Shown: one piece after another, positions 7,601-55,704 of the stretch
How the letters are laid out: every line of letters starts with the position of its first letter
How positions within the stretch are numbered: the first letter of the stretch is position 1
DNA from: an uncultured Gammaproteobacteria bacterium
Lineage (GTDB): Bacteria; Patescibacteriota; Patescibacteriia; UBA9934
Assembly: GCA_964552565.1 (NCBI GenBank)
Contig: CAZKGL010000001.1
Location: forward strand, 435,061 to 499,060
Direction of reading: 5' to 3'
Length of the DNA: 64,000 nt
Made by a program: the position numbers and the translations under genes
Notes under the pieces: generated by a model
Told to the model about the DNA's origin: nothing
What the model saw: only the letters and a program-made list of their open reading frames with translations
The model's database searches: none

Positions 7601-10006
7601 ATGACCATGCGACTCTCTCGCGGCATCGGCGTTGCAGCCGGATTCCTCGCCGCATTCCTCATGGCGGCAAGTGCCGCAACCGCCCAGGCCGCGGGCGGAT
7701 GGACCGATGTCGACCTCGACATTTCGCTCGCTGAGCTCAACGGCATCGATGCCTACGGCTCAAGCCTGGCGATGATCGTCGGCAGCGGCGGCCTTGTGCT
7801 CGCGTCAACAGACAACGGCCTCACGTGGTCCGATGCGTCGCTCAGTTCCGCGGACATGGAGGGCCAGTCGTTCGACCTCTACGACGTGGACGTGATGAGC
7901 GCAACGACTGCGGTCGTCGGCGGCGAAGGCGGTATCTGGCGCACGACGGACGGCGGAGACACGTGGACCTGGGAAGAGATCGAGATCCTGGACACCGTCC
8001 GCGGCATCGACATGGGAAGCAGCACGATTGGTATCGCCGCCACGACGAACGGGACGATTTTCCGCACGACGGACGGCGGAGACACGTGGAGCAGCGTCGT
8101 CACGGGCACGAACGACTACTACGCAGCCTACTGCTACAGCGGCGGAAACCCGTGCTGGGCGGCCGGGGCGAACTCGAGCGGCACCGGCATCGTCTCCAAA
8201 TACAGCGGCAGCTCCTGGACAACAACGACGGTAACGGGCAGCGGCGTCTTGTACGGCATCGACTTTGTCTCGACGTCGACCGGATGGGTCGTCGGTGACG
8301 GAAGCTTTTTCAAAACGACCAACGGCGGCTCCAGCTGGTCGTCGGTAACGAGCGAATCGCTCGACGGGACGGAGGCGCTCTACGGTATCGACATGGCGAG
8401 CGCGTCGACCGGCTACGTTGTCACCAACGACGCGAAGATCGTGCAGACGAGCGACGGCAGCAGCTGGACGAACGGCACCGAGGTCGACAGCGTCTTCAGC
8501 TGGATGTACGCCGTAAACGCAAACCTCAAGATCGCGGTCGGCGGTTTCTCGAGCGCCTCGCGCTACGACGTCGCGGCTCCGGACGCGCCGACGAACTTCT
8601 TTGCTGAAGACGACACCACCACGGACCGCACGCCGTCGTTCACCTGGACCGCGGCCGTCGACGATGAAACCCCGATCGACTCCTACGAAGTCAAGCGCAA
8701 CAGCGGAAGCTGGACGAACATCGGCAACGTGACCAGTTACACCTGGCCGGCAACCATCGCGCCCGGCGCGCATACGTTCCTGCTCCGCGCCTACGACAGC
8801 GCCGGCAACGTCAGCGCGGAAGCGACCGAGACACTCACGGTCGACCTCACCGCCCCGACGGTCCCTGCGCCGTCGATCAACGCCTCGGAAGTCGGCGAGG
8901 AAATCACCTACAGCGTCGTTGCGACGGACGCGGAGACCGATGTCGCGAGCTGCACGCTCTACGTCAACGCGGCTAGCGTCGCGACGATGGTCGATATGAC
9001 GTCGGACTTCTACTACAGCACCCTGGCGGCAAGCGCCGGGACGTTCACCGCGTACGCCGTCTGCGTCGACAGCGCGGGCAATAGCACGACCGGCGCGTCG
9101 ACCGCGTACACCGTGACGGAGAGCAGTTCGAGTTCGTCGAGCGGCGACACCACTGCGCCCGTCGTCAGCGCAGTCTCCCCGTCGAGCGGCACATACGGCG
9201 TCATGGCGACCTGGACCGCCACCTACGCCGACGCGGTCGGCGTGACGGGCTGCACCTTCTACTTCGACGGTCGCAGCCGCGGCGCGATGACCATTGAGTC
9301 CGCGACCGCGGGCACGGCGACGACGACGTTCGCGCCGGACGACAGCGGGACGTCGAGCGCGTATGTCGTGTGCGAAGACGCCGCCGGCAATGAAGGGACC
9401 GGCGCAACGACGACCGTCGCGGTCGCCGCAAGCAGCTCGTCGAGCAGCGACACGAGCTCCGACACGTCGGACACCACGGATACCACGGATACAACCGACA
9501 CGACGTCCGACGAGGAAGACGAGGCGGTGAGCGAAGCGGAGCCGGGCAACCTCATTAAGCTCGCGTGTGCGGACGGGGCGGACATCAATGACCCGTGCAA
9601 GGCGGTCTACTACTACGACACGATCGACGAGAAACGCCACGCGTTCCCGAACGAAAAGGTCTACTTCACGTGGTACGACAGCTTCGACGATGTCATCATC
9701 GTCACCGACGAGTTCATGGCGTCCCTCACGCTCGGCGCCAACGTCACCTACCACCCGGGTACGCGGATGGTGAAGTTCATCACCGTCAACACCGTGTACG
9801 CGGTCGGTGAGGAGGGCGAGCTGCGTCCCATCGACAGCGAAGACACCGCCATCAGCATTTACGGCAGCACGTGGAACCAGCAGATCGACGACATCTCGGA
9901 CGCGTTCTACGGCAACTACGAGTTCGGCGAGGAGATCGATTCGACGAGCGACTTCGACCCGGACGCGGTCGAAGCGAGCGTCGACTCCATCGATGACATC
10001 CTCTAG
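7601..10006 (+). CDS. Large secreted/surface protein with BNR (Asp-box) beta-propeller repeats, Ig-like repeats, an acidic Ser/Thr/Asp linker and a conserved C-terminal domain
   Basis: Signal peptide (MTMRLSRGIGVAAGFLAAFLMAASAATAQA); repeated SxDxGxTW-type motifs (TDNGLTWSD, TTDGGDTWTWEE, TTDGGDTWSSV, TTNGGSSWSSV, TSDGSSWTNG); linker SSSSSDTSSDTSDTTDTTDTTDTTSDEEDE; C-terminal ~150 aa nearly identical to the paralog at 10110-12521. Confidence 0.75.
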   Translation: MTMRLSRGIGVAAGFLAAFLMAASAATAQAAGGWTDVDLDISLAELNGIDAYGSSLAMIVGSGGLVLASTDNGLTWSDASLSSADMEGQSFDLYDVDVMSATTAVVGGEGGIWRTTDGGDTWTWEEIEILDTVRGIDMGSSTIGIAATTNGTIFRTTDGGDTWSSVVTGTNDYYAAYCYSGGNPCWAAGANSSGTGIVSKYSGSSWTTTTVTGSGVLYGIDFVSTSTGWVVGDGSFFKTTNGGSSWSSVTSESLDGTEALYGIDMASASTGYVVTNDAKIVQTSDGSSWTNGTEVDSVFSWMYAVNANLKIAVGGFSSASRYDVAAPDAPTNFFAEDDTTTDRTPSFTWTAAVDDETPIDSYEVKRNSGSWTNIGNVTSYTWPATIAPGAHTFLLRAYDSAGNVSAEATETLTVDLTAPTVPAPSINASEVGEEITYSVVATDAETDVASCTLYVNAASVATMVDMTSDFYYSTLAASAGTFTAYAVCVDSAGNSTTGASTAYTVTESSSSSSSGDTTAPVVSAVSPSSGTYGVMATWTATYADAVGVTGCTFYFDGRSRGAMTIESATAGTATTTFAPDDSGTSSAYVVCEDAAGNEGTGATTTVAVAASSSSSSDTSSDTSDTTDTTDTTDTTSDEEDEAVSEAEPGNLIKLACADGADINDPCKAVYYYDTIDEKRHAFPNEKVYFTWYDSFDDVIIVTDEFMASLTLGANVTYHPGTRMVKFITVNTVYAVGEEGELRPIDSEDTAISIYGSTWNQQIDDISDAFYGNYEFGEEIDSTSDFDPDAVEASVDSIDDIL

Positions 10007-10011
10007 ACCGC

Positions 10012-10040
10012 AAAAACAGGCCTTCGGGCCTGTTTTTGCT
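10012..10040 (+). terminator. Intrinsic terminator after the first BNR surface protein gene
   Basis: CAAAAACAGGCC-TTCG-GGCCTGTTTTTG hairpin with T-run. Confidence 0.6.
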
Positions 10041-10072
10041 TGTGGATAGCGTATTTCTCATCCCGCCCCGCT

Positions 10073-10081
10073 TGTTATACT
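10073..10081 (+). promoter_or_regulatory. Extended -10 promoter element TGTTATACT upstream of the second BNR surface protein gene
   Basis: Motif lies 29 nt upstream of the ATG at 10110; context GCTTGTTATACTGG resembles GCTTGCTATACTTT upstream of the first paralog. Confidence 0.45.
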
Positions 10082-10109
10082 GGTGTCAGCTAATTTTCTG
10101 ACTTGCGCT

Positions 10110-12521
10110 ATGCGCCATTTGCTTCCCTTCCGCATCGCTTCGATAGGAGCGCTGCTTGTTGCGTCATGGTTCTTCAGTCACTCGGCCCTTGCGGGCTGGT
10201 ACACGCCCACGTCGGGCACGACCGCATCCCTCTACGACATCGACTACTACAGCGGCTACGTCGTTGCGGTGGGCTCGGGCGGGACAATCCGCTTTTCCGT
10301 CGATGCCGGACATTCGTGGTCAACGAGCACGAGCGGCACCACGTCGGCGCTGTACGCAGTCGATTCGGATAGCGGCTATGTCCTCGCCGTCGGCTATGGC
10401 GGCGTCATTCTGCGATCGACCAACTACGGCGCGACATGGACTGCCGTCACGAGCGGCACCACCGCGTCGTTGTACGACGTCATGATGAATCCCTACGGCC
10501 GGGCGTTCGCCGTCGGCTATGGCGGCGTACTCCTCACCTCAACGGACTACGGCGCGACATGGAGCGCACAGACTTCTGGTACGACGAACACGCTCCAGGC
10601 GGTTGACATTTGGGGCACCACCCGCGCCTACGCCGTCGGTTCGAGCGGCACCATCTTGTACTGGAACGGGACGACATGGAGCGCACAAACGTCCGGGACA
10701 ACGGAGACGCTGTACGGTGTCGCGATGTCCGGGACAACGGAAGCCTGGGTGGTGGGCTCCGGCGGCGTGGTACGGAAAACGACCGATGGCACGACGTGGA
10801 GCAGCGTCACGACGATTACCGGCCAAACGCTCTACAGTATCGAGATGTCGTCGAGCACGGCGGGCGGCATCATGGCAAAGACCGGCTTGTACGAAACCAC
10901 GAACGGAACGACATGGGCGGCAGCGTCGACCGGCAGCTGGTCGAGCGTATCCTGGGTGCTGAACGTCGATTACGGCACGATCCGTTTTGCCGTGGGCGCG
11001 AGCGGGAATATCCGTCGCTATGACCACTACGGCCCGGCTGTGGGTGCAGTAACACCGACGACTGCGCTCGAGGGCGTCCCGGTCACCTTCAGCGTTGACG
11101 CGACGGATGAAGCGGTCGTGACCCGATGCGATATCGAAATCCTTTCGGGTGACGGCAGCGGCGTCGTCCTGGACGGCGTGGACAGCGAAGATGACAGCTG
11201 GACGGCAAGCTATACGCTGAGTGCCGGCACCTACACGACCCAAGCGACGTGTTACGATCCGGCCTATAACTTTACGATGGGCGCAAGCAGCACCCTGACC
11301 GTCTCTGCGCCGGCGGACACGACCGAGCCCACTGTCGGGTCGCTCATCGTCGTCGAGGACGCCGTCGGGTCGCCGAGCGTATTCACGGTTTCGGCGTCGG
11401 ACGACGTCGGCATCGACTTCTGCACGCTCGTCATCTTGGAGGGCGACCTCGGCAGTGCGGGATTCCGCATGGCCATCCCGGCGTACGCCACCGCGGACAT
11501 GACCGGATCGGATGGTGCGTACACGGCAACATACACCTTTACTGCGGCAGGCGATTACACGGCATACGCGTACTGCCGCGATGCGGCGGGAAACCAGGCG
11601 AACACCGCGGATGCCATCTTTACGATTGACGCCGCGGCTGCGGCATCGGATACCGACGACACCGCGCCGACCATCGGGACGCCTTCCCCGACGAGCTTCA
11701 CGCTCGGCACCTCGCGCACGGTCACGGCGACTGTCAGCGACGACGTCGGCATCGAGAGCTGCGACCTCTTCATTGACGCTGAGAACGCCGGACTCATGAC
11801 GGTGAGCGGCGGGACAGCGAGCAAGTCCTACACCTTCTCGACAAACGACTGGGCCGACGGCGATACGGCGACGGTGACGGTGGAATGCGCAGACGAGGCC
11901 GGCAACTTCGACAGTACGTCGGTCGTCGTCACGCTCAGCGAGGCGGCGGTCGCGGATGAAGAAACGACAACGGAAGAAGAAACCGCGACGGATGAAGAAA
12001 CGGTAACCGTCGAAGAAGACCTGACAAACGAGGACGGCGACGCAGAGGCAGGCATGCTCATCAAACTCGCCTGCAGCGAAGGCGCGGACGTCAATGACCC
12101 GTGCAAAGCGGTCTACTTCTACAGCGAGTACGACGGCAAGCGCCACGCGTTCCCGAATGAGAAGGTCTACTTTACCTGGTACGCGAACTTCGACGAGGTC
12201 GCGGTCGTGAGCGACGAGTTCATGGCATCCCTCACCTTGGGACGCAACATCACGTACCGCCCCGGCACCCGCATGGTGAAGTTCATTACCGTCAACACGG
12301 TCTACGCGGTGACCCGAGGCGGCGTGCTGCGTCCCATCGACAGCGAGGAAACGGCCATCGCCCTCTACGGCGCGACGTGGAACCAGCAGATCGACGACAT
12401 CTCCGACGCGTTCTACGGCAACTATAGCTTCGGTGACGAAGTGACGAGCGGCGATGACTACGACGCGGAGACTGAGGAAGACGCCATCACCACGATCGAC
12501 GCCAACCTCCAGTGGCAGTAA
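10110..12521 (+). CDS. Paralogous large secreted/surface protein with BNR-like repeats, Ig-like repeats, an acidic linker and the same conserved C-terminal domain
   Basis: Signal peptide (MRHLLPFRIASIGALLVASWFFSHSALA); repeated TW-containing propeller-like motifs (SVDAGHSWSTSTSGTT, TNYGATWTAVTSGTT, TDYGATWSAQTSGTT, TDGTTWSSV); C-terminal domain GMLIKLACSEGADVNDPCKAVYFY...GTRMVKFITVNTVYAV...WNQQIDDISDAFYGNY shared with the first paralog. ATG at 10110; the listed ORF begins at an upstream GTG. Confidence 0.75.
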   Translation: MRHLLPFRIASIGALLVASWFFSHSALAGWYTPTSGTTASLYDIDYYSGYVVAVGSGGTIRFSVDAGHSWSTSTSGTTSALYAVDSDSGYVLAVGYGGVILRSTNYGATWTAVTSGTTASLYDVMMNPYGRAFAVGYGGVLLTSTDYGATWSAQTSGTTNTLQAVDIWGTTRAYAVGSSGTILYWNGTTWSAQTSGTTETLYGVAMSGTTEAWVVGSGGVVRKTTDGTTWSSVTTITGQTLYSIEMSSSTAGGIMAKTGLYETTNGTTWAAASTGSWSSVSWVLNVDYGTIRFAVGASGNIRRYDHYGPAVGAVTPTTALEGVPVTFSVDATDEAVVTRCDIEILSGDGSGVVLDGVDSEDDSWTASYTLSAGTYTTQATCYDPAYNFTMGASSTLTVSAPADTTEPTVGSLIVVEDAVGSPSVFTVSASDDVGIDFCTLVILEGDLGSAGFRMAIPAYATADMTGSDGAYTATYTFTAAGDYTAYAYCRDAAGNQANTADAIFTIDAAAAASDTDDTAPTIGTPSPTSFTLGTSRTVTATVSDDVGIESCDLFIDAENAGLMTVSGGTASKSYTFSTNDWADGDTATVTVECADEAGNFDSTSVVVTLSEAAVADEETTTEEETATDEETVTVEEDLTNEDGDAEAGMLIKLACSEGADVNDPCKAVYFYSEYDGKRHAFPNEKVYFTWYANFDEVAVVSDEFMASLTLGRNITYRPGTRMVKFITVNTVYAVTRGGVLRPIDSEETAIALYGATWNQQIDDISDAFYGNYSFGDEVTSGDDYDAETEEDAITTIDANLQWQ

Positions 12522-19145: not shown

Positions 19146-19892
19146 TTATTCGAGCTCCGCGTCAATGAGGTCCACGAAGGTCTCCAGCGGAACTGCGCCC
19201 GAGACGAGCTGGCCGTTGACGAAGGTCGCCGGGGTGCCGCTGACGCCCGCAGCACGGCCGGAGGAGGTGTCCTCGGAGATCTTGCTCGCGTACTTCTCGC
19301 TCTCGACGCAATCGTCGAACTGCGAGCGGTTCAAACCGAGTTCGTCCGCGAGTTCGCCGTAGTAGTCGTCGCTCAGCGAGTCCTGATTCGCGAAGAGCTC
19401 ATCCGTGTACTCCCAGAACTTGTCCTGCTCGCCCGCGCATTCCGCGGCGAGCGCCGCCGGCTTTGCTTCGGGGTGGAACGACAGCGGGAAGTGGCGGTAC
19501 ACCCACGCGACGTCGTCGCCGTACTTGTCCATGATGTCGAGCATGGTCGGGTGGTGGCGGCCGCAGAACGGACACTCGTAGTCCGAGTATTCGACGACAA
19601 CGACCTTCGCCTTCTCGATGTCGCCGCGCACGTGGTCCTCGTCCGTCACCGGCGCAAGCGTCTTTGCCGTCGCCGTCCCGGTCGAGCCGCTGTCATCATC
19701 ATCGTCGTCAACCACGACCGCATCCTCGTCTGCCGCAACCGCACGGCCGCTCGTCCCTCCCAAGATGTCGCCGCCGACGTACGTCAACGCGATGCCGGCC
19801 ACAAGACCGAACACGAAAATCATTTTCGGATTGCCGTCAAAAAAACCGAGCTGCTTGCTGTCGGTCTGCGATGTCGTTCCTTCTTCGCTCAT
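19146..19892 (-). CDS. Membrane-anchored DsbA-family thiol:disulfide oxidoreductase
   Basis: Thioredoxin-fold CPFC active site (YSDYECPFCGRHHP) with typical DsbA flanking conservation; N-terminal TM helix; poly-Asp stretch (VVVDDDDDDSG). Confidence 0.75.
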   Translation of the reverse strand: MSEEGTTSQTDSKQLGFFDGNPKMIFVFGLVAGIALTYVGGDILGGTSGRAVAADEDAVVVDDDDDDSGSTGTATAKTLAPVTDEDHVRGDIEKAKVVVVEYSDYECPFCGRHHPTMLDIMDKYGDDVAWVYRHFPLSFHPEAKPAALAAECAGEQDKFWEYTDELFANQDSLSDDYYGELADELGLNRSQFDDCVESEKYASKISEDTSSGRAAGVSGTPATFVNGQLVSGAVPLETFVDLIDAELE

Positions 19893-20679: not shown

Positions 20680-21123
20680 TTAGAGCGCGCCAATGTCCAC
20701 GAGCGCCTTCTTGAATGTCGCCACCGCTTTCCGGGCTTCCCCGCCGCGGAGCGAAGAGTGCGGGTTGTGCGAGAGTTCGTTGCGCAGCTTGTGCGCCCAC
20801 CACACACGGCGGAGTTCGCGATACTTCTTCTGCGCAAACTGCATGCGTGTCGCAAACCGGTCGCCCGGGAAATGCTTCGCTTGCAGCGCTTTGTCGAGCA
20901 CGGCGTCCGCGTGCATCACGGCAAGCCGCGCGCTCATCTCGTCGCCGCGCGCCATGAGCTGCTCGACGTCGCGCCACGCAAGCGCGATCTTTTGCCGCTC
21001 GTTGCCGAACGCCCAGCGGCGAAACAGGAGCTTGAACCGATAGATGCCGTAGGCTGCACCTCCAGTGACAATCACAAAGACAGCGATCGCTATGCCCATC
21101 TGCGTTGGTGTCAATTCAAACAT
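20680..21123 (-). CDS. Hypothetical membrane-anchored protein (147 aa)
   Basis: N-terminal TM helix (GIAIAVFVIVTGGAAYGIY); its stop is adjacent to the lgt start, suggesting an operon. Confidence 0.45.
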   Translation of the reverse strand: MFELTPTQMGIAIAVFVIVTGGAAYGIYRFKLLFRRWAFGNERQKIALAWRDVEQLMARGDEMSARLAVMHADAVLDKALQAKHFPGDRFATRMQFAQKKYRELRRVWWAHKLRNELSHNPHSSLRGGEARKAVATFKKALVDIGAL

Positions 21124-21131
21124 AGCTCATT

Positions 21132-21180
21132 GGCGGGGTCCCCGCACCCCGCCGATCCGCCGGCCTGCGGGGAGGCCGGC
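21132..21180. repeat. GC-rich double-hairpin repeat (family 2, intergenic copy; module order A then B)
   Basis: GGCGGGGTCCCCGCACCCCGCC (A) then GCCGGCCTGCGGGGAGGCCGGC (B); both modules recur verbatim at 31187-31245 in swapped order. Confidence 0.6.
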
Positions 21181-22637
21181 TATGCACGCGGGTGTTCCTC
21201 ATGCCATTTCGTGAGTGATTGGTATGCCGCCCCGGCGCGGAGCACCTTCCCGTCCTGGAACGCGCCGCCGAGGAACTGGAGTCCCACAGGAAGCTGTTCG
21301 TCGGTTGCAACCCCGCACGGCACCGAGATTCCGGCGATGCCGGCAAGGTTCGCACCGACGGTGAAAATATCCGCGTAGTACATCGCCAACGGATCGTCGA
21401 ATTTTTCTCCGATCTTCCATGCAACGACCGGCGAAGTCGGCGTCATAATAACGTCAACTTCGTTGAACGCCGCGTCAAACTCCTGACGAATCTTCGTGCG
21501 CACGGCGAGCGCCTTTTTGTAGTACGCGTCGGCGTATCCCGCGGAAAGGATCGCAGTGCCGAGAATAATGCGGCGCTTTACTTCTCTCCCGAACCCATCC
21601 GAACGGGCAGCGATGGAACTCTCTTCGAGATTTCCTTCCGCACGGGTGCCGTAGCGCATCCCATCGAACCGCGCGAGGTTACTCGATGCCTCGGCCGGTT
21701 GGATGATGTAGTACGTCGGGAGCGCGTACGCGTAGCTCGTGTCGACATCGATCTTCGTGATTTCCGCTCCCTCCGACTCGAGAAGCTTCACCGCGTCCGC
21801 AAATGCGGTGACGTAATCGAACTCCGAAAGTTCCGGAGCATCAAGATAACTCGGGATGCCAATCCTCATCCCTTTCAGCGAGCGGTCCATGAGTTCGGGA
21901 ATCGTCTTCTCCTCGAGGACAACCGAGGTTGCGTCCTTTTCATCGACACCTTCAATCACTTCAAGCGTCAACGCGGCATCATCAACCGAGCGCGCGAGCA
22001 CGCCGATTTGGTCGAGGCTCGACGAGAGCGCCGTGAGGCCGAACCGCGACACTCGTCCGTAGCTCGGCTTCAGGCCGGTGATGCCGCACAGTGCGGCCGG
22101 CTGCCGGACGGATCCGCCGGTGTCGGAGCCAAGCGCGACCGGCACGAAACCCGCAGCAACCGCAGCCGCCGAACCGCCCGACGACCCGCCGGGCACGCGT
22201 GTGACATCCCAGGGATTCTTCGTCTGCTGGAACGCCGATGTTTCCGTCGACGAGCCCATCGCAAACTCGTCCATGTTCGTGCGCCCGACAATGATCGCGC
22301 CGGCAGCCTTCAGCCGCGCGACCACGGTTGCATCGTACGTCGCGACGTACTCCGCGAGGATCTTCGATCCCGATGAGGCGACATGACCCTTCACGAGGAT
22401 GCAATCCTTCACTGCGACCGGCACGCCGGCAAGACGCGGGAGGGATTCGCCGCGGGCCTTCATGTCGTCGATCGTTTGCGCCGCCGCCAGCGCGTCGTCA
22501 TCAAACGTCTCCAAAAACGCGCCGATCTTTTTGTCACGCTTTTTGATGTCCGCGAGGGTCGCCTTCACGACCTCGACCGCGCTCGTGGTGCCGGACGCAA
22601 TCGCGTCGCGGATTTCTTTCGCCGTTGCAAACGCCAT
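21180..22637 (-). CDS. gatA: Glu-tRNA(Gln)/Asp-tRNA(Asn) amidotransferase subunit A
   Basis: Amidase signature (GGSSGGSAAAVAAG...SDTGGSVRQPA); 485 aa; directly downstream of gatC. Confidence 0.9.
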   Translation of the reverse strand: MAFATAKEIRDAIASGTTSAVEVVKATLADIKKRDKKIGAFLETFDDDALAAAQTIDDMKARGESLPRLAGVPVAVKDCILVKGHVASSGSKILAEYVATYDATVVARLKAAGAIIVGRTNMDEFAMGSSTETSAFQQTKNPWDVTRVPGGSSGGSAAAVAAGFVPVALGSDTGGSVRQPAALCGITGLKPSYGRVSRFGLTALSSSLDQIGVLARSVDDAALTLEVIEGVDEKDATSVVLEEKTIPELMDRSLKGMRIGIPSYLDAPELSEFDYVTAFADAVKLLESEGAEITKIDVDTSYAYALPTYYIIQPAEASSNLARFDGMRYGTRAEGNLEESSIAARSDGFGREVKRRIILGTAILSAGYADAYYKKALAVRTKIRQEFDAAFNEVDVIMTPTSPVVAWKIGEKFDDPLAMYYADIFTVGANLAGIAGISVPCGVATDEQLPVGLQFLGGAFQDGKVLRAGAAYQSLTKWHEEHPRA

Positions 22638-29376: not shown

Positions 29377-29802
29377 TCACAGCCCAAGAGCCGCATCGAT
29401 GGTCTTATTCACCATGGCGTCCGCGTCTTTGTTGAACTCCCGGCGCACGTGGCGGAAGGAAATCGTCCGGAAATGCGGTTTGAGGTTGTACACATCCACA
29501 AAGAGGCGCGCAAGCTCCGGGTTCTTGACCTTGTACTCGCCGTTCAGCTGCTTGACCGCGAGCTCGGAGTCCAAACAGACATCGAGCGACTGCACGCCAA
29601 GCTCGTGCGCCTTTCGGAGTCCGATGATGATTCCCGTGTACTCCGCGACGTTGTTCGTCGCATGGGGCAAATACTCGCCCACTTCCGCAAGCCGTTCACC
29701 GACGTTGCCATCCCCGTCGAGCGCAAACAAGACCGCGCCGCCCGCCGCAGGCCCCGGATTCCCTCTTGCCCCGCCATCGGCATACATTCGTGCCCGCTTC
29801 AT
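29377..29802 (-). CDS. rnhA: Ribonuclease HI
   Basis: 141 aa; RNase H fold with catalytic D/E positions (YADGGARGNPGPAAGG...EYTGIIIGL...); its start overlaps the recJ stop (ATGA). Confidence 0.8.
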   Translation of the reverse strand: MKRARMYADGGARGNPGPAAGGAVLFALDGDGNVGERLAEVGEYLPHATNNVAEYTGIIIGLRKAHELGVQSLDVCLDSELAVKQLNGEYKVKNPELARLFVDVYNLKPHFRTISFRHVRREFNKDADAMVNKTIDAALGL

Positions 29803-31559
29803 ACGCGCAAATCAACAATCCGGAGTTGCAACTCACGGCGCCCGTTCCATATATTTACCTCCAGAGTATACGCGACATCGACGCGGTCGCCCATATGGAG
29901 GCGCGCTGCCCATTCGCCGAAGCCAAAGCCGACGAGCTTCCGCGCCTGTCCCGCGCCGTCAAGCGCCGACAACCGCAGGTGGTTCGCCCTGTTCCCCATC
30001 GTTTCGGCCGCAAGAACGCTGACGCCGCACGCGGCAAATATCGGCGCGCGGTTCCCTTCGCCAAACGGCGCGCACCGCGCGACGTCGCCGAGCAACTCCC
30101 ATGTCGCGTGCTCGAGCGGCAGCTCGACGTCGATCGGGAGCGTCTGCGCCGGTCGCGGCCCGCCAAAGAACGTGCGGGCAAACTCCCCGATGCGGGCTTG
30201 GAAGTCCCGGACCAACGACTCGTCCGCGATAGTGAGGCCGCACGCCTGCGGGTGCCCGCCTTTTCTGACGAACATATCGCCGCACGCGTTCATGGCTTCA
30301 ACCAAATGCAAGCCGCCGACGCTCCGCCCGCTGCCCACGTACTGGCCGCCGACGCGGGCGAATGCGAACGCCGGTACCCCGTAGTCGCCGACAAGACGCC
30401 CGGCGATGAGCCCGACGATGCCGGGAAGCCAATCGTCCTTCCACACCACGAGCACAGGAGCAGCCTCAGCAGCGTCGACCATCGCCCGCGCCTCGTCGTA
30501 TGCCTTTGCGAACATTCCCTGCCGTTCACGGTTCAGCGTCTCGAGCGTCGCCGCGGCGCGCTGTGCGGCAACCATGTCGTCTGCAGCAAGCGCGTCGAAC
30601 GCATGCGACGCCGACGTAAGACGTCCGGCGGCGTTCAACCGCGGGCCGATGCGGAAGCCGATCGTCTCCGTGTCGATGGTATCGAGGTCGACGCCTGCGG
30701 AGGCGAGGATGGCGAGCAGTCCCGGACGTTTTGTCTTGCGCAGCACGGTGAGCCCGAAATGTTCGAGGACGCGGTTCTCGCCGAGGAGCGGCATGACGTC
30801 CGTGACGGTCGCGACCGCAACAAGGTCGAGCATCCACTTTTCGTAGCCGACCGGGAATGCCGCGCCGCGTTTCCGCGCTTCGTCGAAGAGCGCACTCGCG
30901 AGTTTGAACGCGACGCCGGTACCGCACAACACTTTGTTCGGGTACTCCTCGCCCGGCGCGAGGGGATGCAACATGATCGCATGCGCGGGAAGGCGATCTC
31001 CCAACTGGTGGTGGTCGCAAATAACGACGTCAACGCCGAGCTCGTGGGCATGGTCGAGCTGGTCCGCGTTCGCAATACCGCAATCGACGGTAAGCAGCAG
31101 CTTCGTGCCCTCGGCCGCCAGCCGCTCCACCGTGTGCATGGCGACGCCGTAGCCGTCCTTCTCCCGGTCGGGCAGGAATACTCCCAGCCGGCCTGCGGGG
31201 AGGCCGGCGATGTACTGTTGATAGGCGGGGTCCCCGCACCCCGCCATTTTTTTAGCAATGTCTTGGAGCGCGCCGTACAGGAGCGCGCTCCCCGACACGC
31301 CGTCGGCGTCATAATCGCCGTGGATCATGATACGCTCGCCGTTTGCAAGCGCGGCGAAGACGCGGTCGACCGCGTGCCGCATCTTCGTGAACAGCCACGG
31401 CGAATGCGTCCCGCGTTCCCAGTCGGGCGATAAGAACGCCGCGCCGTCGTCCGGGCGGACACCGCGGTTCGCAAGCAGTTGCCGAACAATATCGTCCTCC
31501 ACGCGGGGGGCGATGACCCATTGCCGTTCCATGAAGCTGTCGTTACGTCGCGCCTCCAC
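29799..31559 (-). CDS. recJ: Single-stranded-DNA-specific exonuclease RecJ (DHH family)
   Basis: DHH motifs (IHGDYDADGVSG, DHH..., GGGH); start is either GTG at 31559 or ATG at 31532; contains an in-frame family-2 repeat at 31187-31245. Confidence 0.85.
   Translation of the reverse strand: MEARRNDSFMERQWVIAPRVEDDIVRQLLANRGVRPDDGAAFLSPDWERGTHSPWLFTKMRHAVDRVFAALANGERIMIHGDYDADGVSGSALLYGALQDIAKKMAGCGDPAYQQYIAGLPAGRLGVFLPDREKDGYGVAMHTVERLAAEGTKLLLTVDCGIANADQLDHAHELGVDVVICDHHQLGDRLPAHAIMLHPLAPGEEYPNKVLCGTGVAFKLASALFDEARKRGAAFPVGYEKWMLDLVAVATVTDVMPLLGENRVLEHFGLTVLRKTKRPGLLAILASAGVDLDTIDTETIGFRIGPRLNAAGRLTSASHAFDALAADDMVAAQRAAATLETLNRERQGMFAKAYDEARAMVDAAEAAPVLVVWKDDWLPGIVGLIAGRLVGDYGVPAFAFARVGGQYVGSGRSVGGLHLVEAMNACGDMFVRKGGHPQACGLTIADESLVRDFQARIGEFARTFFGGPRPAQTLPIDVELPLEHATWELLGDVARCAPFGEGNRAPIFAACGVSVLAAETMGNRANHLRLSALDGAGQARKLVGFGFGEWAARLHMGDRVDVAYTLEVNIWNGRRELQLRIVDLRV
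31187..31245. repeat. GC-rich double-hairpin repeat (family 2, in-frame copy within recJ; module order B then A)
   Basis: GCCGGCCTGCGGGGAGGCCGGC ... GGCGGGGTCCCCGCACCCCGCC; translated within RecJ as MAGCGDPAYQQYIAGLPAGR. Confidence 0.6.
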
Positions 31560-36450: not shown

Positions 36451-37564
36451 ATGCAGCAATGACGCCGCTACCGATGAGTTCGTCGCCGTCGTAGAACGCG
36501 ATGAACTGCCCCGGCGCGACGGCGCGCTGCGGCGTGTCGAAGGTGACGACCACCCCCGAACCCCCTCCATGAATGGAGGGGGACTTCGCTCCCTCTTGGC
36601 TACCCCCATTCATGGGGGCTAGGGGGTAGACGACACACGGGGCGAGCGGCTGGCGGTAGCGGATGCGCGCCGCGATTTTTTTGTTTTGCGCGTCCGTGAG
36701 GTTGCCCGGAACGGTCTCCGTCAGGTCCGTCGCAACGAGTGCGGAACGGTACAGCGCCGGATCCTCGTCCCCAACCGCGACCACGACCTCGTTCGTCTCC
36801 GGACGGCGTTCGACGACATAGAGCGGCGTCCCGCCGCCGACACCAAGCCCCTCGCGCTGGCCGATGGTGTAGAACGCGAACCCCTTGTGCGTGCCGAGGA
36901 CCTTTCCGTCCGTCGTCACAATGTTTCCCTCGTGCGGCGCAATGCGTTCGGCAAGGAAATCGACCATGTCGACTTTGCCGACAAAGCAGATACCTTGGCT
37001 GTCCTTTTTCTCCGCGACCGGAAGCGCAAACTTCCGTGCACGCTCGCGCACCTCGGGTTTCGTGTACTCGCCAATCGGGAAGATGACGCGGCGCAACTGC
37101 TCCTGCGTCAACTGACAAAGGAAGTAGCTTTGGTCCTTGTTCGTGTCGACGCCGGCATACAACCGCCCGTCCTTCACGCGGGCGTAGTGCCCGGTTGCCA
37201 CGAAGGCGCACCCCAGCGCGTCCGCTTCGCGGAGGAACAGGTCGAACTTCATGTACTTGTTGCACCGCACGTCCGGATTCGGTGTGCGTCCCGCCCTGTA
37301 CTCGGCGATCATGTACTCGTATACCTTGCGGCGATACTCCTCCTCAAAGTCGAACGTATGGAATGGGATACCGAGCTGCGCTGCGACCCGCATCGCGTCG
37401 CGCCGCTCCGCGCGCCAGCCGCAACTTTCGTCCTCAGTCCCGTCGCTCCAGTTCTTCATGAATCCGCCGACGACCTCATAACCCTGTTCCAACAGCAATG
37501 CCGCGCTGACGCTTGAGTCAACGCCGCCAGAGAGGCCCACAAGGACGCGAGGCTTCGGCTGCAT
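36449..37564 (-). CDS. mnmA: tRNA-specific 2-thiouridylase MnmA
   Basis: PP-loop SGGVDSSV, catalytic Cys region and C-terminal barrel (AVAPGQFIAFYDGDELIGSGVI); contains an in-frame family-1 repeat at 36552-36628. Confidence 0.9.
   Translation of the reverse strand: MQPKPRVLVGLSGGVDSSVSAALLLEQGYEVVGGFMKNWSDGTEDESCGWRAERRDAMRVAAQLGIPFHTFDFEEEYRRKVYEYMIAEYRAGRTPNPDVRCNKYMKFDLFLREADALGCAFVATGHYARVKDGRLYAGVDTNKDQSYFLCQLTQEQLRRVIFPIGEYTKPEVRERARKFALPVAEKKDSQGICFVGKVDMVDFLAERIAPHEGNIVTTDGKVLGTHKGFAFYTIGQREGLGVGGGTPLYVVERRPETNEVVVAVGDEDPALYRSALVATDLTETVPGNLTDAQNKKIAARIRYRQPLAPCVVYPLAPMNGGSQEGAKSPSIHGGGSGVVVTFDTPQRAVAPGQFIAFYDGDELIGSGVIAA
36552..36628. repeat. GC-rich double-hairpin repeat (family 1, in-frame copy within mnmA)
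   Basis: ~90% identical to 40752-40828; hairpins CCCCCTCCA-TGAA-TGGAGGGGG and CTACCCCC..GGGGGTAG; encodes PLAPMNGGSQEGAKSPSIHGGGSGVV. Confidence 0.7.
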
Positions 37565-40638: not shown

Positions 40639-42530
40639 AGCTCTTCGTCAAACGTTATGCGCTCGCCGGGCATGACCTGCTGCGGCGCGGCGGCTGGCGC
40701 GTCCCCGCCGTTCCCGCGGTTGCGGCGTCGGCGTCGGCGTTTGCGGCCAACCACCCCCGAGCCCCCTCCATCAATGGAGGGGGACCCGGTTCCCTCTTGG
40801 CTACCCCCATTCATGGGGGCGAGGGGGTTGAGCATGTCGCCTGCACGTGGTGCGGCGTCGTCGTGCGCCGGGACGGGTTTCGGCGGTGACGCCTCGGGTT
40901 TCTTTACGGGGGAAAGTGCGGACAACGACATGCTTTCGCCCGCCTCCCGCGCAACAGGCTCACCGTCATGCACCTTCGGCGCCGGCCCGGACTCCTTGCC
41001 CTTCTGGCGTACCTCCTTCTTTTCCTTCCCCTTCTTCCGCTCCTCCATCACGATGGGGTGGCACTCTTCACAGTAAATCGGGCGCGACCGGTCAAGCTCC
41101 ACCGGCAACAAAAACTTCTTCCCGCAGCGGGTGCAGTCATACTCGTGGCTGTACCGCTTCTTTTTGTCCTCCTTCTTTTGCGCCGCGACCGCGGCGAGCG
41201 CTCCGGCCACGTCGACGTTCGGGTCAAACCCCGCCCACGTCGCGACGTGCTCTTCAATCTGCGCCTTGTTGCCGGCGTACCGTTCGCGCGACTGCGCGAT
41301 GACCCGCTCCGCGCTGCCCGTGCGCTGGGCGATGGGCGGCAGCGTCTGCGCCGAAAACGGATGGCTCGTCACGCCGTCAATCATGAGTTTGACGTAGATG
41401 GCGTGCTTCGGGAGGTTGATGATGTCTTCCGGCGTGAACCGCGGCATGAGCTCGTTCTCGAGGAAGACGGCGTCCGGCGAGCCGACGCGGAAGAACACCA
41501 TGCTGCCGACGTTGCCGAACACTGCGTCCCGCACCGCAGTCGACGTCCCCTGCTCGAGCTGGGCGATGTACTGGTGCGCCATGATGAGGTTGAGCCGGTA
41601 CTTGCGCGCTTCAGAGAGCACGCTTGCGAACGATTCGACGGCAAAGTTCTGGAATTCGTCGACGTACAGGTAGAAATCGTTCCGCTCGGACTCCGGGACA
41701 TTCACGCGCTCCATGGCCGACATCTGGATCTTCGTGATGAGCATGCCGCCGAGGAGGCGCATCGCATCTTCACCGACGCGCCCCTTGGAGAGGTTGATGA
41801 TGAAAATCTTCTGGCTGTCCATGATGTCGCGGATGTTGATGGACGACTTCGCCTGCGCGACGATGTTGCGAATGACCGACGACGACAAGAATTGGCCGAT
41901 CTTGTTTTGGATCGGCGCAACCGCCTCGGTCGCGAATTTCGCATCATATTGGGCGAACTCCTGCAGCCAGAACTGTTTGACGATCGGGTCGGTGACGTTC
42001 GTGATGATCTGCGCGCGGTAGTCCTTATCCGACAGCATGCGATTGATGCCGAGCAGCGTGGATCCCGACGTGTCGAGGAGCGCAAGGATGGTGTTATTCA
42101 AAATGTACTCCATGCGCGCCGACCACACGTTCTCCCAGATCTTTTTGAACACCGACATGAGGCTCGACGCGACGAGGTGCTTCATGGTCGGATCCACCGA
42201 CTCGAGGATGTTGAAGCCGATCGGGTAGTCGAGGTCCGACGGATTGAAATACACGACGTCGTTGATGCGCCAGGACGGGATGTAATCGATCAGCTTTTCC
42301 GCGGTGTCGCCGTGCGGATCGACATAACAACACCCGTGGCCGGCGTAGATGTCGGCCAGGATCATGTTCTCGAGCAGCGTCGTCTTGCCCATGCCGGTCT
42401 TTCCGATGACGTACATGTGCCGGCGGCGGTCGTCGGTCTTGACGCCGAACTTGCGCATCGCATTCCGGAAGTTGGTCTTGCCGAAATAGATGACGTCGCT
42501 CTCGTGGTCATGTTCGTAACGCATTGGCAT
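40635..42530 (-). CDS. FtsK/HerA/TraG-superfamily P-loop ATPase resembling type IV coupling proteins (TraD/VirD4-like), soluble, with a C-terminal zinc ribbon and basic tail
   Basis: Walker A VIGKTGMGKTT, YVDPHGD (like the DPKG motif of TraD/VirD4), Walker B FYLYVDEFQNF, Zn ribbon YDCTRCGKKF...IYCEECH, Arg-rich tail; contains an in-frame family-1 repeat. Confidence 0.65.
   Translation of the reverse strand: MPMRYEHDHESDVIYFGKTNFRNAMRKFGVKTDDRRRHMYVIGKTGMGKTTLLENMILADIYAGHGCCYVDPHGDTAEKLIDYIPSWRINDVVYFNPSDLDYPIGFNILESVDPTMKHLVASSLMSVFKKIWENVWSARMEYILNNTILALLDTSGSTLLGINRMLSDKDYRAQIITNVTDPIVKQFWLQEFAQYDAKFATEAVAPIQNKIGQFLSSSVIRNIVAQAKSSINIRDIMDSQKIFIINLSKGRVGEDAMRLLGGMLITKIQMSAMERVNVPESERNDFYLYVDEFQNFAVESFASVLSEARKYRLNLIMAHQYIAQLEQGTSTAVRDAVFGNVGSMVFFRVGSPDAVFLENELMPRFTPEDIINLPKHAIYVKLMIDGVTSHPFSAQTLPPIAQRTGSAERVIAQSRERYAGNKAQIEEHVATWAGFDPNVDVAGALAAVAAQKKEDKKKRYSHEYDCTRCGKKFLLPVELDRSRPIYCEECHPIVMEERKKGKEKKEVRQKGKESGPAPKVHDGEPVAREAGESMSLSALSPVKKPEASPPKPVPAHDDAAPRAGDMLNPLAPMNGGSQEGTGSPSIDGGGSGVVGRKRRRRRRNRGNGGDAPAAAPQQVMPGERITFDEEL
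40752..40828. repeat. GC-rich double-hairpin repeat (family 1, in-frame copy within the T4CP-like ATPase gene)
   Basis: Near-identical to 36552-36628; encodes PLAPMNGGSQEGTGSPSIDGGGSGVV in the C-terminal tail. Confidence 0.7.
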
Positions 42531-53936: not shown

Positions 53937-54090
53937 GCATCTACAAAAAATGTCCGGCCGGACAAAAAGTGTAGACGGGGGGCGTTACACTTTTTTCACG
54001 ATCGTCGATTTTGTGTAACGCTCCTGGTAACCAAAACCTCACGGCCGTAAAAAATTGATATCCATCACAAAACCGCCCTTGCGAGCGGTT
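53937..54090. repeat. 154-bp direct repeat, copy 1 (identical to 55542-55695)
   Basis: Perfect 154/154 identity; contains the palindrome TGTCCGGCCGGACA and a terminator-like hairpin AAAACCGCCC-TTGCGA-GCGGTT at its high-coordinate end. Confidence 0.9.
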
Positions 54091-54098
54091 CTGCGGGG

Positions 54099-54743
54099 CT
54101 ATTCAAGTCGCGCAGTCGTGATAAGCCCTTCAAGTGTAGCGAAGACGGCAGCCTCGTCGACCGCCTGGATACTGCCGGGATCCCAGTTGCCGATGTTGCC
54201 GGTCGCGACGATCGCCGCAAGCTCAACGCAATTCCCATCGTGCATTGCGTGGTACACCCGCCTTTCAAAACTCGTACCCGCAGCGGCTTCTCCAATAACC
54301 CCGTAATACCATGTAACGCCGCCGATCTCTTTCGTTTCCGTAAGCTCGACGGTGCCCGTGCCATAGCGAGCGAGGTTGCACGACAAAGCCGTATCGTTTT
54401 CGCTTATCCTACTAAATGATGAAAGATGCACCCAGGCGCCAAACAGGTTGGTGCCGTCATACGGCGCCTCATCAAGAAGGAACGTCGAGCGCACGGGGGG
54501 TGGGTTGCCGTTACTGCTCAGCATGTCGATGAGTGCGCTTCCCGTCTGATAGTCGGAAGCTTCGTCGGCAGCAACGGTAAATTCGTCTGGGTCGTATGCG
54601 AGCGTCAGGCCGAGCGTGCTATCGGAGAACGTCACGCTGCTTGCTTCCGAGGAGGAGGGGGCGGGACGTAAGGCTACGATCGCCAGAAAGACGGCCGCAC
54701 AGATCAATCCGCCCATGAGTATCGCGCGTGATGCCACGGTCAT
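54099..54743 (-). CDS. Hypothetical secreted/membrane-anchored protein (214 aa)
   Basis: N-terminal TM/signal segment (ILMGGLICAAVFLAIVAL); lies within the repeat-bracketed cassette. Confidence 0.5.
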   Translation of the reverse strand: MTVASRAILMGGLICAAVFLAIVALRPAPSSSEASSVTFSDSTLGLTLAYDPDEFTVAADEASDYQTGSALIDMLSSNGNPPPVRSTFLLDEAPYDGTNLFGAWVHLSSFSRISENDTALSCNLARYGTGTVELTETKEIGGVTWYYGVIGEAAAGTSFERRVYHAMHDGNCVELAAIVATGNIGNWDPGSIQAVDEAAVFATLEGLITTARLE

Positions 54744-54804
54744 AGATAGCCTTAAGAGTACCTTGAATAATTATTCCTGCACAGCCCGCTCGTCAAGGCA
54801 ATCA

Positions 54805-54828
54805 CAAAACCGCCCGGAGGCGGTTTTG
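54805..54828 (-). terminator. Intrinsic terminator inside the repeat-bracketed cassette, downstream of the 89-aa gene
   Basis: AAAACCGCCC-GGA-GGCGGTTTTG. Confidence 0.55.
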
Positions 54829-54848
54829 AGTGTGACACCTCTGTTTTT

Positions 54849-55118
54849 TTACTGCCAGAACCAAATCATGTACGAGCCGCGATACCCGTTCTGATACACG
54901 CAGTTCTCGGAACCAAGTTGGATGCCGAATGGCACTTTCCTTACCCCTGGCGCCCCGTCACCGCATGGGACCACACTTGCGTCGGCGGCGAGCTTCACCG
55001 CATCCTCTCCATGTCTCGTACGAATTTTTCGCATCGCTTCGTCGGTATCCATCCATGGCGCCCAGGCGCAAAGGCCGATGACGAGCACAACAACAGCGAT
55101 AACATGGGAATATTTCAT
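54849..55118 (-). CDS. Small secreted protein (89 aa)
   Basis: Signal peptide (VIAVVVLVIGLCAWAPW). Confidence 0.45.
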   Translation of the reverse strand: MKYSHVIAVVVLVIGLCAWAPWMDTDEAMRKIRTRHGEDAVKLAADASVVPCGDGAPGVRKVPFGIQLGSENCVYQNGYRGSYMIWFWQ

Positions 55119-55142
55119 ATTCGCGTTCTCCGAAGTAAAAGT

Positions 55143-55493
55143 CTAGCTTTGAAGCCCGGTCCTCCGTCTCGTAGCCGCCATCACGATCGCGGATATGACC
55201 GCGAAGAAGCCAGCGTCAAGCAGGAATGCGCTGCCCGAAAAGTCATCTTCTATACCAAGGCTTCCGATAACGCTCGTCCCTGCGCTGTCCTTTAAAAATG
55301 GCCTTGGAAATCCCGCTTGCGGCAAGTATTGATAGCACAGGCCATACGGGTTGCCTTCTGTCACGGGACAAAGATTGCCCGTCATGGCCTCATAGCGCGA
55401 GCGAAACACGTAACCAGACAATACGGCCAGCACGAGCCCGAACGAAAGTGCTAACAACACGAACCGTACGCGCCCCATCGTTTTTGCTTCCAT
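55143..55493 (-). CDS. Small membrane protein (116 aa)
   Basis: N-terminal TM (FVLLALSFGLVLAVLSGYVF) and C-terminal TM (FFAVISAIVMAAT). Confidence 0.45.
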   Translation of the reverse strand: MEAKTMGRVRFVLLALSFGLVLAVLSGYVFRSRYEAMTGNLCPVTEGNPYGLCYQYLPQAGFPRPFLKDSAGTSVIGSLGIEDDFSGSAFLLDAGFFAVISAIVMAATRRRTGLQS

Positions 55494-55541
55494 AGTCGAG
55501 TCACTATACCGCGTGCCAACAGCTTAGCAACCTCATCCTGA

Positions 55542-55695
55542 GCATCTACAAAAAATGTCCGGCCGGACAAAAAGTGTAGACGGGGGGCGTTACACTTTTT
55601 TCACGATCGTCGATTTTGTGTAACGCTCCTGGTAACCAAAACCTCACGGCCGTAAAAAATTGATATCCATCACAAAACCGCCCTTGCGAGCGGTT
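55542..55695. repeat. 154-bp direct repeat, copy 2 (identical to 53937-54090); immediately downstream of secA
   Basis: Perfect identity to copy 1; its terminal hairpin also serves as the secA terminator (followed by TTTTG). Confidence 0.9.
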
Positions 55696-55704
55696 TTGTG
55701 CGCG

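Follow-up and report, generated by a model that had tools for sequence, protein, structure and literature searches.

Tagged GC-rich hairpins, probably of REP type, inserted and translated in the recJ gene of a Candidatus Uhrbacteria bacterium

Repetitive extragenic palindromic elements (REPs) are 20-40-bp sequences tagged with GTAG or CGTC, divided into sub-families by complementary stem changes and arranged in head-to-head or tail-to-tail dimers, heterodimers included (PMC3733652). Inverted dimers with tags pointing outward or inward have already been described, the TAG of the tag serves neighbouring open reading frames (ORFs) as a stop codon, and one family can occur in distant taxa (PMC3733652; Di Nocera 2013). 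Classical REPs are mostly extragenic; copies within ORFs are usually a minority, most numerous in Opitutus terrae and Rickettsia conorii, and many of them lie in replication and repair genes (uvrA, uvrB, recB, ligase, dnaE) (PMC3733652). The Rickettsia palindromic elements (RPE; Ogata et al. 2000) include RPE-1, of 100-150 bp, as well as RPE-4 and RPE-6, which bear the CGTC tag (PMC3733652). Here we describe two GC-rich hairpins, A and B, found both inside recJ, the gene of a single-stranded-DNA-specific exonuclease, and in the spacer downstream of gatA, in a 64-kb stretch of contig CAZKGL010000001.1 (the window, meaning the whole stretch that was analysed). The window organism is a Candidatus Uhrbacteria bacterium of the Candidate Phyla Radiation (CPR). 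With a probability of about 0.8, we read the hairpins as units of a REP-type element family and recJ as the holder of two independent, translated insertions that leave the enzyme otherwise intact.

The GC content of the window is 62%, and the 22-mers of module A (GGCGGGGTCCCCGCACCCCGCC) and module B (GCCGGCCTGCGGGGAGGCCGGC) each occur in exactly two copies, with no further copies at up to three mismatches (counts for the host organism itself cover the 64-kb window). The features concerned are the following, with positions in the window.

29799-31559, minus strand: recJ, single-stranded-DNA-specific exonuclease, with the Pfam domains DHH, DHHA1 and RecJ_OB; the annotated protein (P0001) starts at Met10 of the ORF
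31187-31208, plus strand: candidate REP unit B in recJ, with GCGGGG on the plus strand and inverted relative to A; minus-strand translation (I)AGLPAGR
31209-31223, minus strand: inter-unit spacer in recJ, 15 nt, TATCAACAGTACATC; the TAT tag, then CAACAGTACATC (QQYI), which by eye matches the ancestral loop codons
31221-31223, minus strand: tag of unit A in recJ, TAT (codon Tyr) on the minus strand and ATA, running into G, on the plus strand
31224-31245, minus strand: candidate REP unit A in recJ, minus strand GGCGGGGT-GCGGGG-ACCCCGCC, translated (M)AGCGDPA
21132-21153, minus strand: candidate REP unit A, exact 22-mer, in the spacer that separates gatA from its neighbour gene
21159-21180, plus strand: candidate REP unit B in the gatA spacer, 5 nt from A, tags outward
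21181-21184, plus strand: tag TATG after unit B in the gatA spacer

All four copies are exact matches and stand where the initial annotation had placed them, in reversed order on the same strand at the two loci, A and B being separated by 15 nt in recJ and by 5 nt in the gatA spacer. Chance would give 0.01 copies of B and 0.00 copies of A, and none of 100 dinucleotide-preserving shuffles reaches two. Two further assemblies of the organism, GCA_016177675.1 and a Logan contig, contain the same sequence, which speaks against an artefact of assembly as firmly as is needed to dismiss one.

Written on the strand that carries the loop GCGGGG, A reads GGCGGGGT-GCGGGG-ACCCCGCC and B reads GCCGGCCT-GCGGGG-AGGCCGGC. 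Each is made of an 8-bp stem and the identical 6-nt loop, 22 nt in total, which describes A better than the 7-bp stem and 9-nt loop first proposed for it, and minimum-free-energy folds return both as isolated hairpins on either strand. They differ by exactly three base pairs, changed on both sides so that the pairing is compensated. When the stems of five units were aligned (A, B, a unit from an Opitutales genome and the RecJ-site hairpins of two orthologues), 95% of the cells were paired, against 77% in shuffles and 40-60% with slid partners, and four pairs were changed on both sides. A and B are stem variants, or sub-families, of one element type and not unrelated modules. The idea of a kissing loop between them was rejected, as the complementarity of the loops only reflects the same element in opposite orientations.

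A short tag accompanies the hairpin at one end. Read after the unit on the GCGGGG strand, the flank of A in 13 copies is TATGAC (T in 12, A in 13, T in 13, G in 8, A in 12 and C in 11), which on the opposite strand becomes (GTC)ATAG, continued by the stem. After B come TATGCA in the gatA spacer and GATGTA in recJ. At both loci the two units are mutually inverted, forming a dimer with tags outward at 21132-21184 and another with tags inward at 31187-31245. None of the reading frames of the hairpin core contains a stop codon, which only the tag can provide; the gatA stop TAG (21180-21182, minus strand) consists of the last base of B and the TA of its tag. From this stop to the start of the next gene at 21123 the spacer measures 56 nt, nearly all of it filled by the two hairpins. 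By inspection, no consistent target-site duplication or flanking direct repeats surround the 15 copies of the unit.

A scan of the A 22-mer against species-representative genomes returned 13 places, none of them in the window organism and 11 of them in a single metagenome-assembled genome (MAG), CAYRYG01, labelled 'Gammaproteobacteria'. One of its loci (L008) is syntenic with the window at 21-29 kb, with a ligA product about 57% identical at the protein level, and its UvrA shares 75-91% identity with UvrA proteins of Uhrbacteria; on the strength of this synteny and identity we take the MAG to be a distant Uhrbacteria relative. None of its 11 copies of A has a B nearby, so the modules need not co-occur. 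The repeat is real and dispersed, with exact copies beyond chance in the window and A present in CAYRYG01 as well. The initial annotation had seen in the hairpins independent shuffling modules: their independence holds, A standing alone 11 times in this MAG and recJ having received two insertions, and free shuffling gives way to inverted-dimer arrangements.

Reading frames at the CAYRYG01 copies were assigned by the GC1/GC2/GC3 pattern, and the gene products were confirmed by Pfam. Seven of the 11 copies are in-frame within conserved genes, in three reading frames and both orientations. A reads AGCGDPAY in GlmS, which is the same frame as in RecJ, RRGAGTPPI/M in MgsA, in the delta subunit of DNA polymerase III (HolA) and in TGT, and IGGVPAPR in a PPDK_N protein, UvrA and a class II ribonucleotide reductase (RNR). 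Despite the inserts, Pfam domains are retained in RecJ, GlmS, UvrA, MgsA, HolA, RNR and TGT. Two further copies sit at gene ends and supply the stop codons: the ligA of L008 runs through A and ends at the TGA of TATGA, its orthologues ending about eight codons sooner, and a gene of L015 ends at the TAG of TCATAG. The remaining two copies are intergenic. The units survive in stop-free frames or at gene ends.

The other two places hold a single exact A each. In a 51%-GC gammaproteobacterial MAG (L006, CAZPQJ010000005.1) it bears an ATAG tag, and another ATAG-tagged hairpin lies 300 nt off; in an Opitutales MAG (L009, JBBRHC010000041.1) it bears a GTAG tag and forms a tags-inward dimer with a similar hairpin 22 nt away. 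Both copies point either to a REP family shared across phyla or to convergence. Among viral contigs, neither A nor B found a match.

What a single unit adds can be measured in uvrA. Between the filled gene (L013) and an empty one (L031, 89% amino-acid identity) the difference at the site is exactly 24 nt: the empty site reads GAC GAT AAG directly followed by GAG GCC, and the filled one GAC GTC ATA GGCGGGGTCCCCGCACCCCGCC TC GAG GCC. One unit therefore adds eight codons. Among the UvrA proteins, P0123 and P0124 have the insert in common, and P0125, P0126 and P0128 lack it. The copies of A and B display a copying process that recognises the 22-nt unit together with its tag, the upkeep of the hairpin by compensated changes, and a 24-nt insertion polymorphism.

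In recJ, the ORF product matches RecJ structures of the PDB at E=1e-71 and is 100% identical to a Candidatus Uhrbacteria RecJ. Across the units it reads ...KKMAGCGDPAYQQYIAGLPAGRLGVFLPDREKDGYG..., between GDYDADG and FLPDREKDGYG, and three solved RecJ structures have a 15-20-residue gap opposite this insert. The distance from GDYDADG to FLPDRE in the best 120 homologues is 26 residues in 94, 27 in 5 and longer (+6 to +138) in 21. In P0002 and P0003, the closest relatives at 74% and 71% identity, the loop has its basal length of 12 residues, and both proteins are sisters of the window RecJ in a rough neighbour-joining tree built with the loop masked. These short loops bear out the in-frame insertion that had been proposed between the DHH region and the FxPxRxxxGYG motif. 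Its size had been put at about 20 amino acids; against the basal loop it amounts to about 14-16, in two units of 7-8 codons and not in one 20-residue block.

The nucleotides between the hairpins indicate how this came about. The empty orthologue L021 reads AAA TGG CAG GCG GAC ATC GGC GTG where the window has ATG-(A+TAT)-CAA CAG TAC ATC-(B)-...GGA GTA. Aligned by eye, the 12 nt between A and B resemble the old loop codons TGG CAG GCG GAC ATC of L021, which implies that recJ received two separate insertions.

The RecJ catalytic motifs all lie in invariant columns of a 39-sequence alignment. An AlphaFold2 model of the protein, with a mean predicted local distance difference test score of 89.6 (76-92 in the insert, P0001 residues 96-115), superposes on solved RecJ structures with template modelling (TM) scores of 0.80-0.86, the value of 0.86 being that to 8Y30. 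The model places the insert at the distal end of the long helix that begins at the DxD motif, ahead of the strand leading to FLPDRE, and predicts a short helix at residues 102-109. From the gaps in solved homologues and the variety of inserts found there, the position is probably a tolerant surface site. The insert would be nearly neutral for RecJ function. Short GC-rich mobile hairpins that land in coding sequence are also known from organellar genomes, in the form of yeast mitochondrial GC clusters and 'byp' elements. Ribosomes skip the byp elements; for A and B, unlike byp, ordinary translation is the simplest assumption because the units are stop-free and in-frame.

The same RecJ loop has been filled in other ways elsewhere. 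About 20 of the 120 homologues carry different palindromic inserts there, unrelated in sequence. RecJ orthologues with an insert at this codon position include the following.

L003, RecJ site: A-like hairpin followed by TAT, GCGGGGGATGGGACCCCCGC
L005, RecJ site: A-like hairpin followed by TAT, GGCGGGGGATCCAACCCCAGCC
L022, RecJ site: CGAGGCCT...AGGCCTCG, then TATAAC
L030, RecJ site: 10-bp hairpin, AT-richer, after the same AAAAAAATG
L028, RecJ site: double hairpin of family-1 type (the ~82-nt repeat described further below)
L023 and L027, RecJ site: ~100-nt elements with terminal inverted repeats

Where orthologues have comparable residues (AGDGTPAY, AGDPTPAY), their DNA carries an A-like hairpin followed by TAT, and no case of the same residues without the repeat was met among them. 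A single ancient insertion shared with L003 and L005 is not favoured, because the sister lineages have empty loops in the rough neighbour-joining tree. In another homologue, P0082 (709 aa), a 138-aa insert at the same loop holds DUF559 (PF04480) and PF18741 endonuclease domains with Gly/Pro-rich stretches on either side, and may be a mobile endonuclease exploiting the same permissive site.

The UvrA loop that holds A varies as well, with a modal length of 14 residues and 19-35 residues in 31 of 101 Uhrbacteria homologues. After HTIEVVVD, many of the expanded loops have LPLxKGExEG-like motifs that resemble translated CTCCCCCTG...GGGGGAG hairpins. At least two other sites of variable insertion exist in UvrA, and in P0124 an extra SPAGRP is nested in the A-derived IGGVPAPR.

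The way in which such units might spread can be sketched as follows. The mobile unit would be the 22-nt GC-rich stem-loop with a short tag at one end, its sub-families retaining the loop and swapping three stem base pairs. Units would insert singly, each adding 24 nt or eight codons, and would often become inverted dimers. In an ultra-compact genome most landing sites would be coding, and the survivors would be stop-free 8-codon inserts in permissive surface loops, or copies at gene ends where the tag gives a TAG or TGA stop. By analogy with E. coli REPs and their REP-associated tyrosine transposase (RAYT) (PMC3733652), movement may take place as single-stranded DNA, through a RAYT/IS200-like HUH tyrosine transposase that would recognise the hairpin and cut at the tag.

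Several observations weigh against a REP-type family. With E. coli RayT (MG1655) as query against all ORFs of the window and of about 25 loci, phmmer reached no better E than 0.43, Pfam found no Y1 or other transposase in 10 small ORFs of the window, and no transposase appears in the Pfam lists for 22 kb around recJ (L001); these negatives cover about 8% of the host genome. The known copies of B are two only, and its two matches in JGI metagenomes both resemble ordinary coding sequence of unrelated organisms, as chance would produce. In all 13 Uhrbacteria copies A bears the tag ATAG, or TAT(G)AC on the opposite strand, instead of the canonical GTAG, and a first-position G-to-A change is not among the tag variants given for REPs in the sections of PMC3733652 consulted. 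Lastly, the A-like hairpins at the RecJ site of L003 and L005 could mean a locus-specific role and not repeated insertion.

Set beside the tagged REPs of PMC3733652 (GTAG super-family, with dimers of the bacterial interspersed mosaic element type), the units described here share the short tagged stem-loop, the compensated sub-families, the head-to-head and tail-to-tail heterodimers, the donation of a TAG stop, the presence of copies inside repair genes and the occurrence of the same family in distant taxa. They differ in the tag, which is ATAG/TATGAC and not GTAG, in the frame-neutral length of the 24-nt unit, and in the host, a CPR bacterium with a genome below 1 Mb and no RAYT in the ~8% examined. 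They also differ in their location: with seven of the 11 CAYRYG01 copies and one of the two window dimers intragenic, they are not predominantly extragenic. With the RPEs they have in common palindromes set in-frame in the loops of conserved and apparently still functional proteins of a reduced genome. A and B were nevertheless rejected as RPEs on tag, size and host, being units of 22-24 nt with another tag, no sequence relationship and a host other than Rickettsia; family 1, with its ~82 nt, is nearer to RPEs in size than A and B are. The intragenic REP phenomenon is already known in other bacteria and it is the lineage, Uhrbacteria and the CPR, that is new. What stands out is the recurrent filling of the same protein loops. 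A literature search combining CPR or Patescibacteria with REP, RAYT, MITE (miniature inverted-repeat transposable element) or palindromic in-frame insertions found nothing relevant.

Bacterial MITEs such as Correia/NEMIS, Nezha and ERIC are 70-300 bp long, with 15-30-bp terminal inverted repeats and target-site duplications. Like A and B, they are small non-coding hairpin-forming repeats, sometimes co-transcribed or fused in-frame with genes. As such, A and B do not qualify as MITEs, since a unit adds 24 nt and neither terminal inverted repeats nor a target-site duplication were found. They could be lone ends or degenerate leftovers of larger, MITE-like elements that have terminal inverted repeats and are moved by a DDE transposase, and this we consider unlikely. 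In each of the 11 MAG copies a 22-nt hairpin stands by itself, without a second arm in its vicinity, no copy shows a target-site duplication by inspection, the filled and empty uvrA differ by 24 nt only, and no transposase was seen. What gives the proposal its appeal is that related Uhrbacteria do hold palindromes of 70-100 nt with ends TTGTCATCC...GGATGACAA in the ligA-gatC and gatA spacers and in the RecJ of L023, that the tag side GTCATA of A shares GTCAT with those ends, and that the gatA-spacer dimer (CATT-hairpin-5 nt-hairpin-TATG) is laid out like a miniature version of them.

These longer palindromes lie at 19265-19345 in L003, at 19390-19488 and 21264-21357 in L029, and in the RecJ loop of L023, where one is in-frame; in related genomes they take up the spacer between ligA and gatC and the one downstream of gatA. 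The GTCAT at their end is similar to the GTCATA that flanks module A.

Very unlikely, in our judgement, is a recJ hairpin that would be a selected, locus-specific nucleic-acid structure (acting on mRNA stability, translation pausing or antisense termination) with the other copies being secondary. At least eight lineages do have hairpins of differing sequence at the same RecJ codon position; the inserts show no sequence relationship to one another, vary in size between +6 and +138 aa, and are missing from the closest relatives and from 94 of the 120 homologues. The identical 22-mer is also present in seven unrelated genes in three frames. As to termination, A followed by ATTTTTTT (31224-31254, plus strand) scores as an intrinsic terminator antisense to recJ, and in the recJ of L030 the same AAAAAAATG is followed by another hairpin, which would repeat this antisense layout. 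A sense-strand intrinsic terminator was rejected, with none in the gatA spacer and the sole match in recJ antisense to the gene. Rfam, run over the whole window, returned three tRNAs only, and A and B match no family.

Palindromes may also arise in place, through template-switch replication errors, and spread by gene conversion without any transposition machinery. Several RecJ-loop hairpins (L022, L030) were indeed seen once only in the roughly 20 kb examined, and no transposase was found. Yet 13 unrelated sites, spread over two genomes with ligA at only about 57% identity, carry one and the same 22-mer with one and the same 6-nt flank, and the element also stands in a 51%-GC gammaproteobacterial MAG. 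This is difficult to explain unless some copying mechanism recognises the unit, and we regard an origin in place as highly improbable. Chance similarity of GC-rich, Gly/Pro/Ala-coding sequence, for which the 62% GC of the genome and the ordinary look of the metagenome matches to B might speak, can practically be dismissed in view of the 0 of 100 shuffles with two copies, the perfect hairpin symmetry, the conserved tag and the occurrence in several frames and in non-coding DNA.

The REP-type units A and B are not alone in the window. A second repeat, family 1, has two copies.

36549-36630, minus strand: family-1 repeat (double hairpin), in-frame in MnmA; PLAPMNGGSQEGAKSPSIHGGGSGV is absent from three orthologues
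40750-40831, minus strand: second copy of the family-1 repeat, in-frame in the C-terminal tail of a VirD4/TrwB-like coupling protein

The copies of ~82 nt hold the hairpins CCCCCTCC...GGAGGGGG and CCCCCAT...ATGGGGG and are translated LAPMNGGSQEG.SPSI.GGGSGV. Family 1 is the same phenomenon as A and B, with a different element. Elsewhere in the window, 157-nt direct repeats, 99% identical and each starting with the palindrome TCTACAAAAAATGTCCGGCCGGACAAAAAGTGTAGA, lie at 53937-54093 and 55542-55698 and enclose a 1.45-kb block of lower GC (55%). As a possible carrier of a transposase, this block (53937-55698) showed only small ORFs with signal-peptide-like N-termini and no transposase. Some 4 kb at 8400-12500 are internally repetitive: direct copies of 274 nt and of 119 nt lie 2506 nt apart and are 79-85% identical, and repeats with a period of 120 nt occupy 10330-10720. 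The GC3 filter made no gene call there, and the region probably encodes a large repetitive surface protein.

A bolder version of the REP-type reading would have a frame-neutral 24-nt, stop-free REP family spreading actively through the Uhrbacteria into surface loops of their replication and repair enzymes, with no resident RAYT, and either mobilised in trans or acquired across phyla. We deem this unlikely. If true, translated palindromes would be a major and recurrent source of loop-length variation in the ultra-small genomes of the CPR.

Two translated REP-type insertions in recJ would in themselves bring the Candidate Phyla Radiation into the known range of tagged REPs and of REP copies read in-frame within genes. 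Where a genome leaves hardly any room between its genes, the elements would persist mainly as translated 8-codon inserts, and Gly/Pro/Ala-rich loop insertions of CPR proteins that have had no explanation could be recognised as repeat insertions. The inserts could be used as presence/absence markers for the tracing of strains and lineages. With its 22-nt hairpin, its 6-nt tag and its clean empty and filled sites, the system would also offer a compact means to study the movement of REPs and the neutrality of inserts in repair enzymes.

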